From a virus (taxonomy: Duplodnaviria > Heunggongvirae > Uroviricota > Caudoviricetes): a stretch of DNA of 8,472 nucleotides. The translations under genes and the position numbers were made by a program. How positions within the stretch are numbered: position 1 is the first letter of the stretch; each line of letters opens with the position of its first letter. This document shows positions 1 to 8,035 of this stretch, one piece after another. Under the pieces are notes generated by a model. It saw only the letters and a list, made by a program, of their open reading frames with translations, made no database searches and was not told where the DNA came from. The stretch lies in the IMG/VR virus record IMGVR_UViG_2711768073_000015; one strand, given 5' to 3'.

Positions 1-669
1 TTCCTGAATGGCAATATCGCGGGTGTGGGACACAATGGTGTCGATTTCTTCCGGATGAGCAAAGACCATCATATGCCAGTGCACGGTGCCGTCATGGTGA
101 GGCTCCACCGTGCGGATGCCATACCAGCGCAGGCCGTCGCGGTTCAGTTTCTTGCGGACCGCCGCAAAAAACGTGTTAACCAGGTAATCGCTGGAGTCGC
201 GCATGGTGGCCCCGTTCCATTTGGGGTTCGGATGACCGTTCTCCGTTGTTGCGTGGTATTTTGACGGGCAGGTGACAGTCAGAAACACCGCTCTGTCGCC
301 ACGGGCTTCGGCCAGAAGTTCCAGTCCCTTCATGGTGGCCATCATTTCTGCCTTACGGTGAACCGGGTTACTTACTCCCGCGTAATACACTGTCTCGAGA
401 TCAATCGTGAACCCGTCTTCATTTTCCAGCATGAAACTTTTCAGGAAATCGCGTGTTTTCTCGCGCTGTGCGCGAAACTCGCTTAACGCGTCCTGGCTCA
501 GATAGGGTGATGTTTTTCTGGAAACCAGACAGGCGGCGCGGAGTTGTTCTTCTCTCCACTCGCAACGTAACAGCCACAGTTTGCGTTTCCACCATTCCGC
601 ACAGGTCAGGCGAAGGATTGCGCCCGGCAGCAGCTCCGTGTCCGGTTCATTCCTCCGGTCTTTGTCTGT
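1..669. repeat. Direct repeat copy X1 of the gene A core segment (partner 1426..2094; offset 1425 bp)
   Basis: 1..669 aligns to 1426..2094 with a handful of substitutions and no indels (for example 25 matches 1450 and 453 matches 1878 in the ORF track). Homology may continue left of the window edge. Confidence 0.9.
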
Positions 670-2832
670 ATCAACGCCGTCAGGGAGCTGCGGCCACGGT
701 GCTGGCCGTTCTTCCGGCTGTTCTGTCCCGTTGTTGTCCGTTTCCTGTACACGGGGACAGTTATTGCCACGAGTCCAAGGGGCGGCAGGGCCGCCCTGAA
801 GGTCAAAACCATTTTCGCGGGTGCTGTCTTCCGCTTCCGGTTTGCGTCTTACCAGCTTCCAGTTATCCGGATGCGTGCACACACGGGAGGATTCCCCGAT
901 GAGTGGTGACCAGATCCCATAAATCTGTACGCTCTGTTCGCCGTAATCGTTCAGCTCTTCTGCGAGGTCGTAGGCGGTGCGAATCAGGTAGTCTTTGCGT
1001 GGAACAAGCACGCCACCCTGTTTTTCAATGTAGGTGGCAAAACACCCGGCATCAGCGGCAGCGAGTACCGCATCCATTGCGTCATCCTTCAGCCGTTGCG
1101 GGCCTTCCGGGTTGCGTGCCATCTGGCTGGCAAGGCGGCGTAGTTCACGCCACACCTGACGGGAGGGGATGCCAAAGAACTGGAACTGGCGGACCCGGTG
1201 AAGGCGCGCCCAGCCGATGGCGCGCTCCACGCTCTCGGCCATTGATTTTCCGGTTTCGTGGTCAACGCGTGGCTTGCCCGTTTTCGGGTCGATACCATCC
1301 ACGGCGCGGCTGTCCAGGTTCTTTCCGATGTAGGTGGCGATGTAGCTGGTTGGCGTGCCTTTTGAGCCGTCGACATACTCCACCTTAAAGCGCGGAGTAA
1401 TATCATTGCCCAGCTCGTGGCGGTCTTCCTGAATGGCAATATCGCGGGTGTGGGACACAATGGTGTCGATTTCTTCCGGATGAGCAAAGACCATCATATG
1501 CCAGTGCACGGTGCCGTCATGGTGAGGCTCCACCGTGCGGATGCCATACCAGCGCAGGCCGTCGCGGTTCAGTTTCTTGCGGACCGCCGCAAAAAACGTG
1601 TTAACCAGGTAATCGCTGGAGTCGCGCATGGTGGCCCCGTTCCATTTGGGATTCGGATGACCGTTCTCTGTTGTGGCGTGGTATTTTGACGGGCAGGTGA
1701 CAGTCAGAAACACCGCTCTGTCGCCACGGGCTTCGGCCAGAAGTTCCAGCCCCTTCATGGTGGCCATCATTTCTGCCTTACGGTGAATCGGGTTACTTAC
1801 TCCCGCGTAATACACTGTCTCGAGATCAATCGTGAACCCGTCTTCGTTTTCCAGCATGAAACTTTTCAGGAAATCGCGTGTTTTCTCGCGCTGTGCGCGA
1901 AACTCGCTTAACGCGTCCTGGCTCAGATAGGGTGATGTTTTTCTGGAAACCAGACAGGCGGCGCGGAGTTGTTCTTCTCTCCACTCGCAACGTAACAGCC
2001 ACAGTTTGCGTTTCCACCATTCCGCACAGGTCAGGCGAAGGATTGCGCCCGGCAGCAGCTCCGTGTCCGGTTCATTCCTCCGGTCTTTGTCTGTTGTCAG
2101 AGCGTCATAATGTGGAGGCATAGCGTGCAGGTGTAACGCCATGCGGGCCAGCATCTGATACGCCTTCAGCGTTACATCCATGGTCAGCTCGCCATCGGTC
2201 GCGCCAAAGCCATCGCAGAGTTTTTCAAAAGTGCCACTGAACATCGCCGCCGTCATGGTGGCCAGCGTCTGTATCTGGTGTTTGTTGAGCTGCGGCAGGT
2301 AAAGCAAATCGTCCAGGCGTTCGCGTCCGGCAAGGGAGCGATAGCCCGGTGTCAGCCAGCGGCTGTCGGTGCGGTCCAGACGTTCGAATATTTTGCGCAG
2401 GGTTCCGCGCGCGTAGCGTTCAGCCTGCCAGCTCTTTTTGCCTTTCTGACGATCGGCTTCCTGCTTCTTGCGCAGAAAAGAGAGGTGGCGGCTCAGAGGT
2501 TCACGCAGATAAACGGGAAGCACCTTCAGTGTGGCAAAAGCACGGGCCACCGGGTCTTGTTCTGTTGCCTGACGCTTGCTGATGATGCTTTGTGCCAGCT
2601 TTTCACGCTGTCCGGCTTCCTCAAGGGATGCCATGAGTTTTTTACCCACGGTGGATTGTGCGAAAAAGGCTTCTTCCTTCGCTTCCTGTTCTTCCTGTGC
2701 CCTTTTGTTTGCCTCAAGGTAGTAACGGATGGCGCGTTGCAGGTCGGTTTCAGTTTCCTGCCTGCGCTCCGTAAATCTGGCCGGATCAATGGCTGGCCGT
2801 GGTTCATTCCAGCTCCATGCAAACGCACTCAT
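1..2832 (-). CDS. A: Replication initiation endonuclease, P2 gpA family (HUH rolling-circle initiator); partial, runs off the window at its 3' end; contains an in-frame internal repeat
   Basis: Minus-strand frame (codons at 3k+1..3k+3) is open from ATG 2832..2830 to the window edge in every segment I hand-translated (1..420 and 1321..1440); 421..1320 and 1441..2830 were not fully hand-translated, so that stretch is inferred. The ORF track omits it, presumably because no stop lies inside the window. Translation shows TSPYLSQDALSEFRAQREKTRDFLKSFMLENEDG, the HUH motif GIRTVEPHHDGTVHWHMMVF (encoded at 1486..1545 and again at 61..120) and paired tyrosines SYIATYIGK (1321..1347), matching the motif order I recall for P2 protein A. 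Confidence 0.85.
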   Translation of the reverse strand, partial: MSAFAWSWNEPRPAIDPARFTERRQETETDLQRAIRYYLEANKRAQEEQEAKEEAFFAQSTVGKKLMASLEEAGQREKLAQSIISKRQATEQDPVARAFATLKVLPVYLREPLSRHLSFLRKKQEADRQKGKKSWQAERYARGTLRKIFERLDRTDSRWLTPGYRSLAGRERLDDLLYLPQLNKHQIQTLATMTAAMFSGTFEKLCDGFGATDGELTMDVTLKAYQMLARMALHLHAMPPHYDALTTDKDRRNEPDTELLPGAILRLTCAEWWKRKLWLLRCEWREEQLRAACLVSRKTSPYLSQDALSEFRAQREKTRDFLKSFMLENEDGFTIDLETVYYAGVSNPIHRKAEMMATMKGLELLAEARGDRAVFLTVTCPSKYHATTENGHPNPKWNGATMRDSSDYLVNTFFAAVRKKLNRDGLRWYGIRTVEPHHDGTVHWHMMVFAHPEEIDTIVSHTRDIAIQEDRHELGNDITPRFKVEYVDGSKGTPTSYIATYIGKNLDSRAVDGIDPKTGKPRVDHETGKSMAESVERAIGWARLHRVRQFQFFGIPSRQVWRELRRLASQMARNPEGPQRLKDDAMDAVLAAADAGCFATYIEKQGGVLVPRKDYLIRTAYDLAEELNDYGEQSVQIYGIWSPLIGESSRVCTHPDNWKLVRRKPEAEDSTRENGFDLQGGPAAPWTRGNNCPRVQETDNNGTEQPEERPAPWPQLPDGVDTDKDRRNEPDTELLPGAILRLTCAEWWKRKLWLLRCEWREEQLRAACLVSRKTSPYLSQDALSEFRAQREKTRDFLKSFMLENEDGFTIDLETVYYAGVSNPVHRKAEMMATMKGLELLAEARGDRAVFLTVTCPSKYHATTENGHPNPKWNGATMRDSSDYLVNTFFAAVRKKLNRDGLRWYGIRTVEPHHDGTVHWHMMVFAHPEEIDTIVSHTRDIAIQE
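1426..2094. repeat. Direct repeat copy X2 (partner 1..669)
   Basis: Same alignment. Identity ends at 2094/2095, where the two copies continue into different sequence (670.. versus 2095..). Confidence 0.9.
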
Positions 2833-2921
2833 GGCTGGTATCCCGTCACGCGCTGCCACTCCTGTGAGAAGAGGGCGGAAAGGCGGTTAAATTCAGCGGA
2901 GTATTCAATCAGCGAGGCACA
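1799..2921. repeat. Tandem duplication unit, copy 1 (1123 bp)
   Basis: 1799..2921 aligns to 2922..4044 at a constant offset of 1123 with scattered substitutions (for example g2825 versus t3948). The two copies abut directly, head to tail. Confidence 0.9.
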
Positions 2922-3955
2922 ACTCCCGCGTAATACACTGTCTCGAGATCAATCGTGAACCCGTCTTCATTTTCCAGCATGAAACTTTTCAGGAAATCGC
3001 GTGTTTTCTCGCGCTGTGCGCGAAACTCGCTTAACGCGTCCTGGCTCAGATAGGGTGATGTTTTTCTGGAAACCAGACAGGCGGCGCGGAGTTGTTCTTC
3101 TCTCCACTCGCAACGTAACAGCCACAGTTTGCGTTTCCACCATTCCGCACAGGTCAGGCGAAGGATTGCGCCCGGCAGCAGCTCCGTGTCCGGTTCGTTC
3201 CTCCGGTCTTTGTCTGTTGTCAGTGCGTCATAATGTGGAGGCATGGCGTGCAGGTGTAACGCCATGCGGGCCAGCATCTGATACGCCTTCAGCGTTACAT
3301 CCATGGTCAGTTCGCCATCAGTCGCGCCAAAGCCATCGCAGAGTTTTTCGAAGGTGCTGCTGAACATCGCCGCCGTCATGGTGGCCAGCGTCTGTATCTG
3401 GTGTTTGTTGAGCTGCGGCAGGTAAAGCAAATCGTCCAGGCGTTCGCGTCCGGCAAGGGAGCGATAGCCCGGTGTCAGCCAGCGGCTGTCGGTGCGGTCC
3501 AGACGTTCGAATATTTTGCGCAGGGTTCCGCGCGCGTAGCGTTCAGCCTGCCAGCTCTTTTTGCCTTTCTGACGATCGGCTTCCTGCTTCTTGCGCAGAA
3601 AAGAGAGGTGGCGGCTCAGAGGTTCACGCAGATAAACGGGAAGCACCTTCAGTGTGGCAAAAGCACGGGCCACCGGGTCTTGTTCTGTTGCCTGACGCTT
3701 GCTGATGATGCTTTGTGCCAGCTTTTCACGCTGTCCGGCTTCCTCAAGGGATGCCATGAGTTTTTTACCCACGGTGGATTGTGCGAAAAAGGCTTCCTCC
3801 TTCGCTTCCTGTTCTTCCAGAGCCTTTTTGTCTGCCTCAAGGTAGTAACGGATGGCGCGTTGCAGGTCGGTTTCAGTTTCCTGCCTGTGCTCCGTAAATC
3901 TGGCCGGATCAATGGCTGGTCGTGGTTCATTCCAGCTCCATGCAAACTCACTCAT
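2909..3955 (-). pseudogene. Truncated 5' duplicate of replication gene A (348 codons; lacks HUH and Tyr core)
   Basis: ATG at 3955..3953 overlaps the TGA of the upstream ORF (ATGA). Translation MSEFAWSWNEPRPAID... is near-identical to the N-terminus of the copy starting at 2832. The frame breaks 13 nt after the duplication junction (2921/2922) at TGA 2911..2909 because the 1123-bp unit is not a multiple of 3. The ORF track lists it from a GTG at 3982. Confidence 0.6.
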
Positions 3956-4044
3956 GGCTGGTATCCCGTCACGCGCTGCCACTCCTGCAAGAAGATGGTG
4001 GAAAGGCGGTTAAATTCAGCGGTGTATTCACTCAGCGAGGCACA
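2922..4044. repeat. Tandem duplication unit, copy 2 (1123 bp)
   Basis: As above. The segment 2922..3217 is a third copy of 374..669 and 1799..2094. Confidence 0.9.
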
Positions 4045-4341
4045 CCCGCCAGCAGTGCGATGCGCCAGCATTGCCGCAAATACGGAGGCCGGGGAGTCGT
4101 AATACGCCAGCAGTGATTCGCCGTGCGGTGTCAGGCAGTGCAACGCCAGTCCGTGTGGTGTGAAGTCCACGCGGTAGCAGTCGTCTACTGTGAAATAAAG
4201 GGTATCCACATTCTCCGGTTTTGTAGTGCGTGCTCTGTTGTCACGACCACGGATGTAAAGATCAAATAATCCTTGGAGAACGGGAGCCAGACGGGTGTCC
4301 TGTGTGCGCACCCATCTTGTGAAGTCATGAGCGTCAATCAT
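3952..4341 (-). CDS. Hypothetical phage early protein (129 aa), immediately upstream of and coupled to gene A
   Basis: ORF track; ATG at 4341; stop TGA 3954..3952 overlaps the A-type start codon. A copy of its last 89 bp is duplicated at 2833..2921. Confidence 0.6.
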   Translation of the reverse strand: MIDAHDFTRWVRTQDTRLAPVLQGLFDLYIRGRDNRARTTKPENVDTLYFTVDDCYRVDFTPHGLALHCLTPHGESLLAYYDSPASVFAAMLAHRTAGGCASLSEYTAEFNRLSTIFLQEWQRVTGYQP

Positions 4342-5961: not shown

Positions 5962-6240
5962 TTATTTTGTCATCTGCACGTATTTCTCTGCGTTTCTGAT
6001 GGTTTTCAGGAAAATTGCGAAGAGATTTACTGTACGTTTTGAGTTTTTTTCTTCTTGGTTGATGGGAAGGGCTGCTCTGTCAGCCTGCCTTTTCACTGCA
6101 TTAACAGTTTGATTGGTACGCTTCGCGTAATCTTTCAGGCTTTCTTCGAGTACCGGTAATCCATGCTCATCGCGGTATGGGTAGAACGCCGCCAAACGCT
6201 CAAAATCCGCTTGCTCGTATGTGTTCAAGAGCTTTGTCAT
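5962..6240 (-). CDS. First gene of the early (lytic) operon, in the Cox/Apl position; sequence not recognisably P2 Cox
   Basis: ORF track (92 aa); divergent from the C-like repressor gene across a 91-bp switch region. The call is positional only. Confidence 0.5.
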   Translation of the reverse strand: MTKLLNTYEQADFERLAAFYPYRDEHGLPVLEESLKDYAKRTNQTVNAVKRQADRAALPINQEEKNSKRTVNLFAIFLKTIRNAEKYVQMTK

Positions 6241-6331
6241 GATGTGATAACCTGTTCAGTCTGTGGTTATTTGTTGCTAAAAGTCGTCTATAGGCGACTT
6301 TTAGGGTTAATTTAGTCGTCTGGAGACCACC
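6241..6331. promoter_or_regulatory. Divergent immunity-switch region with candidate operator sites
   Basis: Near-perfect 28-bp palindrome ctaaaagtcgtcta/taggcgacttttag at 6277..6304 (10-bp arms perfect, one mismatch in the inner 4 bp). Direct repeats of agtcgtct at 6282..6289 and 6314..6321. GGAG at 6322..6325 sits 6 nt before the repressor ATG at 6332. Confidence 0.5.
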
Positions 6332-6643
6332 ATGTCAAGTGGGTACGAAAAAAAACTGAAAGAGATACGGAAAAGTGAAGGGTTAACTCAAGCTGAGTTT
6401 GCTGATGTTACTGGGATAAATCTCGGAACTATAAAGAATTATGAGAGCGGTAAAAGAGAGGTTGGTTTAAGCGTTGTTGATCGCGTAATTAATTCTAAGG
6501 ATTTCGAAAAATACACTATATGGCTTATGACGGGAAAAACAAATGAGGCTGCTGGGCAGATCAGTCCCTCTCTCTCCCCTGATGGGCCAGAAAACACATC
6601 GTCTTCTCAAAAGCCCCGCAAGACTGGTACACAGCCCGGCTAA
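6332..6643 (+). CDS. C: Immunity repressor, P2 C-like (helix-turn-helix)
   Basis: ORF track (103 aa). The segments LTQAEFADVTGINLGTIKNYESGKRE and FEKYTIWLMTGKTNEAAGQISPSLSPDG closely parallel the P2 C repressor as I recall it. Positioned immediately upstream of int on the same strand, as in P2. Confidence 0.8.
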   Translation: MSSGYEKKLKEIRKSEGLTQAEFADVTGINLGTIKNYESGKREVGLSVVDRVINSKDFEKYTIWLMTGKTNEAAGQISPSLSPDGPENTSSSQKPRKTGTQPG

Positions 6644-6692
6644 TCATGGAACGCTGGGGGCATGGTGGTCTTGTAACGCTGGGGTTTCACGA

Positions 6693-7670
6693 ATGAGCAT
6701 AAAATCAATTCCGGGAGGGTATCTTCTTGACATGCGCCCTGAGGGGCGTAAAGGCAAACGCATTCGCAAAAAATTTAAAACGAAATCGGATGCAGTTTTA
6801 TATGAGCGGTGGGTGCTGGCGCAACAGCATAACAATGAGTGGAAAGGAAACTCTATTGATCGCCGTCCTCTGTCAGTGCTTATTGACTTGTGGTGGAAAT
6901 ACCACGGCCAGCTAATGAAGTCAGGGCATAACACGCGCCTTAAATTGCTGCGCTTGAGTGAAGCAATGGATGACCCGTGCGTGCATAAACTTAATACAAC
7001 GATGCTCACCGAGCTACGTGTGTCCAGGATAGAGCAGGGGATACAGCCCAGCACCATAAATCGAGAGATTGGGGCGTTAAGCGCGATGTTTACCGCACTC
7101 ATCTCATCCGGCCATTTTCTTAACGATAACCCCGTTCAAGGCCTTAAAGGAATGAAGGTTAACGAGCGCGAAATGGGATATCTGAGTAAGTCTGAATGTG
7201 TTCAGTTGCTGGATGCACTGGCTGAAAATCCCGATGAACGACTGGCTGTCGAAATCCTTCTGTCGACCGGGGCGCGATGGGGCGAGGTAGCGGCACTGGA
7301 GCAGCGCCGTGTTCTTCATTGTCGAATCACTTTTTCAAAAACGAAGAACAGCAAAAACCGTACCGTTCCTATTTCTGAAAGCCTGTTTGAAAAGATCAAA
7401 AAACGGGGCGGGAAACTGGTGTTTCCGACGCTGGATTATTCATTGGTTCGCGATGTCATCAAAACGGTCGCACCTGATGTTCCTGACGGCCAGGCTGTTC
7501 ATGCGCTGCGCCACACCTTCGCCAGTCATTTCATGATGAACGGCGGCAATATTCTGACGCTCCAGAAAATTCTGGGGCACGCAAAGATTCAGACAACGAT
7601 GATTTATGCCCATCTTGCGCCGGATTACCTGCAGGATGCGGTGAGGTTTAATCCACTAGGAGGTGCTTAA
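6693..7670 (+). CDS. int: Tyrosine recombinase / phage integrase (325 aa), P2 Int-like
   Basis: ORF track frame 6543..7670. I place the start at ATG 6693 (MSIKSIPGGYLLDMRPEGRKGKRIRKKF...) because the 6543 start would overlap the repressor gene. C-terminal catalytic signature HALRHTFASHFMMNGGNILTLQKILGHAKIQTTMIYAHL (HxxR ... Y). Stop TAA at 7668..7670. Confidence 0.9.
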   Translation: MSIKSIPGGYLLDMRPEGRKGKRIRKKFKTKSDAVLYERWVLAQQHNNEWKGNSIDRRPLSVLIDLWWKYHGQLMKSGHNTRLKLLRLSEAMDDPCVHKLNTTMLTELRVSRIEQGIQPSTINREIGALSAMFTALISSGHFLNDNPVQGLKGMKVNEREMGYLSKSECVQLLDALAENPDERLAVEILLSTGARWGEVAALEQRRVLHCRITFSKTKNSKNRTVPISESLFEKIKKRGGKLVFPTLDYSLVRDVIKTVAPDVPDGQAVHALRHTFASHFMMNGGNILTLQKILGHAKIQTTMIYAHLAPDYLQDAVRFNPLGGA

Positions 7671-7672
7671 GA

Positions 7673-8035
7673 GTGAAGTTTCATTTAGATGAACTTAAAA
7701 GAATGGCAACGCTCGATAATTTTGCGCGTTTTCTCAATGAGTCGTCTACGAATGAAAAATGTTTGTCGTGTGGCGATACGGATATGTACATGTATTTGAC
7801 GAATATTGTTGAGGTGGGGCCTGAGCCGAAAACTGCTGAGGAGTGTGATTTAGGCACTTTTGTTATGCTTGATTACATCGGTCCATTTACTGGGTATCCG
7901 GGATATGAGGGACATGATCGGGAAAATATCCATAACTATGAATTCCGACTTACCTGTAACAGATGTGGGTTTGTTCATCGTTACTCGGCCCGGGCCTTTA
8001 TGAACTGGGTAGGCAAGCAGGGTGATGAGAAGTGA
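7673..8035 (+). CDS. Hypothetical protein with two CxxC pairs (putative zinc-binding), 120 aa; translationally coupled to int
   Basis: GTG start at 7673, 2 nt after the int stop, with AGGAGG at 7658..7663 (9-nt spacer) inside the int 3' end. Motifs CLSCGD and CNRCGF. Stop TGA 8033..8035. Confidence 0.6.
   Translation: MKFHLDELKRMATLDNFARFLNESSTNEKCLSCGDTDMYMYLTNIVEVGPEPKTAEECDLGTFVMLDYIGPFTGYPGYEGHDRENIHNYEFRLTCNRCGFVHRYSARAFMNWVGKQGDEK

Follow-up and report, generated by a model that had tools for sequence, protein, structure and literature searches.

How does a small immunity repressor read a spacer in which copies of one motif lie in both inverted and direct orientation? The question is raised by a stretch of 8,472 nucleotides of the IMG/VR record IMGVR_UViG_2711768073_000015 (Caudoviricetes), here called the window. 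Listing of open reading frames (ORFs) and domain searches identified it as the immunity region of a P2-like Escherichia coli prophage. An earlier note, made from the letters alone, had located a palindrome and direct repeats at positions 6241-6331 and assigned them to the C/early-operon switch. This placement was correct; the segment is exactly the intergenic spacer between the start of a cox-like gene (6240, minus strand) and the start of the gene for the repressor C (6332). Two explanations had been offered, overlapping operators for two regulators or a repressor with a binding geometry other than that of P2 C. We consider it probable (about 0.7) that the palindrome and the direct repeat constitute a two-site operator of a P2-family C repressor at the early promoter Pe, arranged as described below. 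This reading draws on the anatomy of the sequence, on homology, on the position of the sites relative to the promoter and on their co-variation with the DNA-binding domain of C. From these we infer binding by C, its stoichiometry and cooperativity, and the transcription start sites.

Anatomy of the palindrome and the repeated site

The spacer contains the following elements, none of which is assigned to a strand:

6277-6304: 28-bp near-perfect palindrome CTAAAAGTCGTCTA/TAGGCGACTTTTAG, 13/14 pairs, consisting of an 18-bp core and symmetric CTAAA/TTTAG flanks
6282-6299: core dyad operator AGTCGTCTA/TAGGCGACT, 18 bp, 8/9 dyad pairs, predicted O2
6314-6331: second operator AGTCGTCTGGAGACCACC, 18-bp degenerate copy of the core, 13/18 identical, 6/9 dyad pairs, predicted O1

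The names follow the literature on P2 and Wphi, in which O1 is the site in the promoter spacer and O2 the site downstream of the Pe start. The repeats described in the earlier note were all recovered. The arms of the palindrome (6277-6290 and 6291-6304) are 14 nt long, 93% complementary and adjoin without a loop; the sole mismatch is T6287/G6294. The half-site aaaagtcg, said to occur in both orientations, is at 6279-6286 and as its reverse complement at 6295-6302. The direct repeat AGTCGTCT at 6282 and 6314, for which a distance of 32 bp had been given, extends further than was noted, to 17 nt (6282-6298 versus 6314-6330, 76% identity). From center to center the two 18-bp sites are 32 bp apart. 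This corresponds to about three helical turns and puts both on the same face of the DNA. The core site fits a family frame, RGTC-N10-GACY, seen in 19 classes of C (see below). The site at 6314-6331 contains the Shine-Dalgarno sequence of C, GGAG (6322-6325).

The probability of 13/14 or more complementary pairs in a 28-bp stretch is about 1.6e-7 per position, and about 1e-5 such stretches are expected in the spacer. Apart from 6277-6304, no 28-mer in the entire 8.5-kb window reaches 11/14 pairs (mean of 0.33 at that threshold in mononucleotide shuffles). The exact 8-mer repeat by itself is marginal, about 0.05 for the 91-bp region by our own estimate. It gains weight because of the 17-nt extension and the comparison across classes. 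The palindrome and the repeat are real and lie far beyond chance.

The two sites bracket the -10 of the predicted early promoter

Three promoter elements have to be considered:

6333-6338, minus strand: predicted Pe -35, TTGACA, overlapping the start codon of C
6309-6314, minus strand: predicted Pe -10, TAAATT, with an 18-nt spacer and 10/12 consensus matches; predicted +1 at about 6302
6245-6253, plus strand: candidate extended -10 of Pc, TGaTAACCT, predicted start at about 6259, held with low to moderate confidence

Between 5900 and 6750 Pe, on the minus strand, is the sole sigma-70-like promoter. Its -35 element has the same position relative to the ATG of C as the annotated Pe -35 of P2. 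TGTCAA or CGTCAA is kept at this position in all classes, even where it is non-coding (SE11 class and Wphi). As we read it, the Pe promoter feature of the Wphi record comprises the -35 TTGACA and the -10 TATATT, and transcription starts 7 nt past the latter. By analogy, the Pe start was predicted at about 6302 here. The overall layout of Pe matches the promoter features in the Wphi record.

In P2-type switches the operator consists of two repeated sites on either side of the -10 (or the -35) of Pe; here they bracket the -10. The site at 6314-6331 fills the whole 18-nt spacer between -35 and -10 and also takes in the first base of the latter. The core site at 6282-6299 covers about +4 to +21 of the predicted transcript, and the full palindrome runs from about -2 to +26.

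Sigma-70 scans of the plus strand gave no strong or convincing match for Pc. The candidate, TGTGATAACCT, is invariant in three classes that share a backbone, and it resembles TGtTACCCT, in our reading the -10 of the promoter feature that the Wphi record gives for Pc. P2 C-type switches have face-to-face promoters Pe and Pc between C and cox; of the two, Pe is here a strong consensus match at the position expected from P2 and Wphi, and Pc a candidate.

The predicted operators change together with the DNA-binding domain of C

The comparison concerns two further elements:

6332-6643, plus strand: C immunity repressor, 103 residues, helix-turn-helix protein (Pfam HTH_3, E 2e-10)
6280-6515, no strand: immunity cassette, consisting of the operators and C residues 1 to about 62 (DNA-binding domain)

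C matched the P2 C structures 2XCJ/2L49 (E 1.3e-16) over residues 2-99, i.e. nearly its full length, and phrog_147 (E 3e-35). Pfam reported helix-turn-helix domains only and no C-terminal cleavage or oligomerization domain. As is characteristic of P2 C-type switches, it is a helix-turn-helix repressor of about 100 residues, homologous to P2 C and without a RecA-cleavage domain. Its best relative among 50,697 phage records is the C protein of Wphi, 56% identical; none was higher. Searches of the same records with the switch region (megablast/blastn) yielded no useful nucleotide match, i.e. the class is absent there. Of 5,426 complete E. coli genomes, about 80 carry the switch region at 95% identity or more, among them O104:H4 2011C-3493, and always on the chromosome. 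The palindrome and the repeat belong to an uncharacterized but common immunity class. In E. coli strain 13KWH46 the prophage adjoins btuC.

In three E. coli classes (A, B and C) the cox side is shared, and so is the C protein from residue 63 or so to its C-terminus; they differ by a swap of approximately 6280-6515. Sliding identity among them is 25-70% inside this cassette versus 75-100% outside. Its edges are sharp mosaic boundaries (L097 and L098 equivalents), with cox, the C-terminus of C and int otherwise near-identical.

The earlier note had staked its proposal on conservation of the repeats in related immunity regions, and the proposal withstood this check. The cores of the half-sites are invariant in 12 haplotypes of the window's own class (6283-6288, 6291-6293 and 6315-6327). 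The most variable spot is the dyad center, 6289/6290, and most of the right half of the core is invariant. The AAA/TTT bases that flank the core are kept in the within-class variants.

The question whether the 18-bp dyad recurs was examined in 19 classes, defined by less than 85% identity over the first 62 residues of C. The sample comprised 80 viral-contig loci, Wphi and several loci from E. coli and other genomes, anchored by their conserved Pe -35, which reads TGTCAA on the strand of C. All 19 classes have the same frame: the Pe spacer is filled by one 18-bp site, and a second one is located upstream at a distance of 23-34 bp. Taken over all classes, the consensus approximates RGTCnTCAA/TTGAnGACY. 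Of the 19 classes, 11 have 7/9 or more dyad pairs in the site downstream of the Pe start (O2), and six reach 8/9 or more. In a shuffle null that took the maximum over 37 positions, the corresponding probabilities were 0.055 and 0.005. Sites of the same switch were identical at 12.9/18 positions, as compared to 8.6/18 for non-cognate pairs. Left and right halves of the spacer site are each related to the palindromic site in a class-specific manner, and for either half the observed value was reached in 0 of 20,000 permutations. Because both halves co-vary by class, the repeated unit is the whole 18-mer and not a half-site of 8-10 bp.

Individual classes are instructive. In class L073 (IMG/VR UViG_2551306129_000008, around 650-700) the spacer site is an inverted copy, with 15/18 identities inverted versus 9/18 direct. 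This is expected only if recognition is dyad-symmetric. The SE11 class has a perfect palindrome, GTGTACTTATAAGTACAC, with the copy GTGTACTTATAGGAACAC 34 bp downstream. In UTI89 PhiECO5, the published 'class IX' (PMC3448106), CTTCACCATGTGGTGAAG scores 8/9 at a spacing of 32 bp. A scan of genome contigs turned up only two relevant loci, both of the SE11 class. A second scan of viral contigs, with P2 C as query, returned only P2-class switches of 84-100% identity and no new classes of the P2 branch; diverged P2-class relatives keep an 11-bp direct repeat.

One locus of the sample, L002, is on a 226-kb contig labeled Vagococcus sp. WN89Y (NZ_JBQPOM010000071.1). Its switch is essentially that of the E. 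coli SE11 class, with the same operators, which suggests contamination or misassignment of this Gram-positive assembly.

A proposed mode of repression

The arrangement suggests how C might act. Each 18-bp site would be occupied by one symmetric C dimer, whose two recognition helices would enter successive major grooves and read AGTCGTC and the inverted copy there. Affinity would be high at the palindrome and lower at the spacer site, the right half of which would also be constrained by the ribosome-binding site of C and by the promoter spacer. Being on the same face of the DNA and three turns apart, the two dimers would cooperate across the -10. The DNA would be bent in the -10 region and RNA polymerase would be excluded from Pe. 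In this manner, cox and the early genes would be kept off. The block of Pe would at the same time relieve convergent interference on Pc, which would transcribe C and int.

P2 C is a symmetric dimer with helices that fit two successive major grooves, and it resembles repressors that bind palindromes (PMC2995052). In vitro, a single 'half-site' suffices for binding of Wphi C, and several complexes are formed (PMC1904263). Binding to a single half-site fits with one dimer per site.

Alternative explanations

Several points weigh against a dyad operator, and most of them speak for the published model in which C reads direct repeats. Applied to this locus, each dimer would have one specific helix, and C would recognize only the direct copies of AGTCGTCT(N), which are at 6282 and 6314. 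The arm in inverted orientation (6291-6304) would be incidental or an auxiliary third half-site. The three characterized classes, P2, P2 Hy dis and Wphi, are described as direct-repeat binders (PMC1904268, PMC2995052). In Wphi, repression in vivo was not impaired by deletions of 6 or 10 nt (pEE939/940) that eliminate the putative second half of the downstream site; the same deletions abolish the slow complex in electrophoretic mobility shift assays (PMC1904263). Therefore, the second half is not essential, at least in Wphi, where the downstream site has 4/9 dyad pairs. Weak dyads (4-5/9) are present in four of the 19 classes, including L071, in which the two sites are a 17/18 direct repeat. 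P2 itself (L095, 1395-1424 region) scores weakly, with 6/9 dyad pairs in CTATTGAGATCTAAACAC and 5/9 in CAATCTACATCTAAACTA, in an 18-bp frame chosen post hoc. The partial dyads of P2 hint at a decayed palindrome; the P2 branch may also be truly more asymmetric. Further, Pc and both start sites at this locus are predicted positions, and, as with any DNA palindrome, an RNA hairpin is encoded as well, to a role of which some probability has to be granted. The direct-repeat reading is opposed by an inverted arm with 13/14 pairs (p about 1e-7 per position), which is largely conserved within the class, and by strong dyads, which recur in 11 independent classes out of 19. In addition, the palindromic right halves and those of the spacer sites vary together, and in L073 the second site is inverted. 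Taken together, a purely direct-repeat reading by C appears rather unlikely here.

A two-site C operator was also weighed against explanations in which C has a smaller part. Two regulators might use overlapping operators, e.g. C the palindrome and the Cox-like protein the direct copies. Cox and C do both act in this spacer of P2-like switches (PMC3448106), and the fourth of the candidate Cox boxes (6272-6280, see below) touches the outer flank of the palindrome. However, inverted and direct copies change together with the helix-turn-helix domain of C, whereas the cox gene is constant in classes A, B and C. The boxes of Cox and Apl are about one helical turn apart (PMC7498355), not 32 bp, and a TGT-rich motif with a period of about 10 bp at 6243-6280, echoed near att, is the better Cox candidate. 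This proposal of the earlier note found no support and is very unlikely: one regulator explains all three copies of the motif, and the sites co-vary with its DNA-binding domain. The palindrome might instead act mainly as RNA; folded into a stem-loop at the 5' end of the Pe mRNA and within the leader of C, it would affect mRNA stability or translation. The predicted hairpins are indeed stable (plus strand -17 kcal/mol, z -6.0; minus strand -11.5 kcal/mol, z -6.3), and the predicted Pe start at about 6302 is at the edge of the palindrome, just as the Wphi start in the record's promoter feature is at the edge of a 9-bp inverted repeat. Against an RNA function, the second site is outside of the Pe transcript and still shares both halves class-specifically. 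Central pairs that are unable to pair in RNA are nevertheless symmetric (positions 9/10 in 11 of 19 classes, binomial p 0.002; positions 8/11 in 13 of 19, 8e-5). Mismatches are not enriched for G-T (6/28), and no Rfam family matched at E up to 1. A predominant function as RNA is thus highly improbable, and a secondary role of the hairpin alongside protein binding is possible. Lastly, a scan flagged 6277-6304 as terminator-like on the plus strand, i.e. as a potential intrinsic terminator or attenuator between Pc and C. However, the T-run is inside the stem, the tail GGTTAATTTA is weak, one terminator-like match compares with 1.1 expected in shuffles, and the equivalent palindromes of other classes lack a T tail. 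A chance palindrome is opposed by p of about 1e-5 for the spacer and by the recurrence across classes. Terminator and chance were rejected on these grounds, their probability being next to negligible.

Comparison with known switches

By protein homology, gene order and operator placement the locus is a member of the P2 C-type switches. The order of the module is as expected, with C followed by int on the plus strand and a divergent cox-like gene at the head of the early operon. In P2 and Wphi the operators flank the -10 of Pe, as 8-bp repeats 22 bp apart in P2 and 10-bp repeats 34 bp apart in Wphi (PMC1904268). Half-sites have been stated to be non-palindromic direct repeats for P2 and for 'all seven classes' (PMC2995052). 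In this feature the locus differs, since 8/9 dyad pairs are formed in its downstream site (13/14 in the extended palindrome). The suggestion that the repressor has a geometry differing from that of P2 C thus gained support from the comparison: the distance is 32 bp as against 22 in P2 and 34 in Wphi, and at least one of the sites is dyad-symmetric.

In layout and spacing the switch is most like that of Wphi (Peduovirus, immunity class III), which has the closest characterized repressor and the same gene order. In both, the Pe -35 is at the start of C and two sites about three turns apart (34 bp in Wphi, 32 bp here) flank the -10, one in the promoter spacer and one just downstream of +1 (PMC1904268, PMC1904263). 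The Wphi sites fit the 18-bp frame, and the spacer site, AGTCACCAATAGGTTACT, has 7/9 dyad pairs. The differences are in the operator sequence (GTCACCAATA in Wphi versus AGTCGTCTA here), in the weak symmetry of the Wphi downstream site, described as a 10-bp direct-repeat half-site where a near-perfect palindrome is present here, and in the C-cox spacer (152 versus 91 bp). The cox genes are unrelated at the sequence level.

P2 shares the homologous C, the overlap of the Pe -35 with the ATG of C, two sites flanking the -10 and the module of cox, C and int. In P2 the sites are 8-bp non-palindromic direct repeats 22 bp apart (PMC2995052); in the window each extends over 18 bp, the spacing is 32 bp and one of the two is a palindrome.

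The proposed mode of binding, a symmetric helix-turn-helix dimer on a dyad operator of 14-18 bp, resembles that of P22 c2, 434 cI and C.Esp1396I. P2 C superimposes on P22 c2, and in both the recognition helices are 26 A apart (PMC2995052). C.Esp1396I binds directly repeated palindromic sites, one dimer each, as a tetramer (PMC2995052); its spacing is 15 bp compared to 32 bp here. Unlike lambdoid repressors, C has 103 residues and a helix-turn-helix domain only, and there are two sites only, which are probably not shared with the lytic repressor. The likeness is an analogy of mechanism and not family membership. In a lambda-type switch the lytic repressor is a Cro-like helix-turn-helix protein that binds the dyad operators of CI as well; here the divergent gene is Cox-like rather than Cro-like, and a separate periodic motif is the candidate for its sites.

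In the P2-like phage 186 the promoters are face to face, and inverted repeats are what the repressor recognizes (PMC1904268, PMC1904263). Its CI, unlike C, has about 196 residues in two domains and forms higher oligomers, and the phage has distal flanking sites and CII. No cII gene turned up in the window, and no search aimed at cII was made. AGTCGTCTAC, the operator half-site plus one base, has further plus-strand copies at 4179-4188, 2.1 kb left of the operator, and at 7740-7749, 1.4 kb right of it. Matches to the 9-mer half-site with one mismatch numbered five versus 1.65 expected. As distal operators for looping in the manner of 186 or lambda both copies were rejected. That at 7740 is in a coding sequence identical in the heteroimmune classes B and C; that at 4179 is a half-site on its own and scores 3/9 dyad pairs. 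We judge these copies to be chance occurrences, or at least not linked to immunity. Similarly, a 186 CI-type switch was rejected, as C has 103 residues against about 190 in a two-domain CI and the copy at 7740 is not class-specific. Inspection by eye for a LexA box (CTGT-N8-ACAG) as a sign of SOS control was negative, and C is without a cleavage domain.

Candidate Cox boxes and other features of the prophage

The neighborhood of the operators contains:

6243-6280, plus strand: candidate Cox boxes, four TGTnnnTAn units starting at 6243, 6253, 6262 and 6272 (spacing 10, 9 and 10)
5962-6240, minus strand: cox-like gene, 92 residues, first gene of the early operon, assigned by position and divergent orientation
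6693-7670, plus strand: int, tyrosine integrase (Pfam Int_N and Phage_integrase), 3' of C in the same operon

The cox-like protein matched phrog_575, 'Cox-like excisionase and repressor', weakly (E 4e-5). With P2 Cox it shares 21% identity (E 3e-5 in a single pairwise comparison), a remote relation. A Pfam search gave no match. Beyond it on the same strand are a DUF4761 gene, small ORFs and the replication gene A.

The TGTnnnTAn units are candidate Cox/RDF (recombination directionality factor) boxes; Cox and Apl boxes are known as direct repeats (PMC7498355). They abut the core operator and overlap the outer arm of the palindrome by 4 bp. The stretch 6243-6280 is largely conserved among classes with the same cox gene. 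A comparable periodic array of TGT-rich boxes is present beside the att end of the prophage (L096 11314-11353), and the 10-mer TTATTTGTTG (6267-6276 in the switch region) is common to both. Near this array are CCACA repeats that resemble arm sites of P2-type Int. Other classes have obvious tandem boxes of 10-11 bp at the corresponding position.

Between the stop of C and the start of int a direct repeat, TCATGGAACGCTGGGG / TCTTGTAACGCTGGGG, is located at 6644-6659 and 6669-6684, 25 bp apart. The stretch that contains it is 100% identical across the three heteroimmune classes compared. The repeat may control expression of int.

At the other end of the window, 1-4044 holds duplicated segments of replication gene A (1-669 versus 1426-2094, 99.1%; 1799-2921 versus 2922-4044, 97.9%). 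The counterpart in E. coli 13KWH46 is a single 2.8-kb ORF. A genuine tandem duplication and an artefact of assembly are the two explanations. Next to replication gene A, outside of the window, the same prophage (L096 2561-3839) encodes ParM as well as a plasmid partitioning/stability protein, which is unusual in an integrated P2-like prophage.

What the proposed operator would mean for the P2 family

As judged from sequence, the palindromic site most likely departs from the textbook view of this repressor family as reading direct repeats only. P2 C is cited as one of the rare symmetric helix-turn-helix dimers to recognize non-palindromic direct repeats, and how a symmetric C dimer reads asymmetric DNA is a stated puzzle (PMC4752584, PMC2995052). 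The 19 heteroimmune classes suggest that a site with a dyad is the common state of the family. Possibly, then, the natural operator unit across the P2 C family is an 18-bp dyad site of approximately RGTCnTCAA/TTGAnGACY bound by one symmetric dimer, a generalization for and against which we see the odds as even. The direct repeats of P2, Hy dis and Wphi may be two copies of such a dyad site of which one half has decayed. If this is true, the class described here, with a near-perfect palindrome and a degenerate copy, is a clean natural test case.

The locus is a variant of a known switch and no new kind of system; it bears on a small puzzle of long standing. If binding is confirmed, the rule of recognition would be an ordinary one, one dimer per dyad. 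P2-like operators and immunity specificities would then be predictable from sequence, and the cassette of approximately 6280-6515 would be the unit of immunity exchange.

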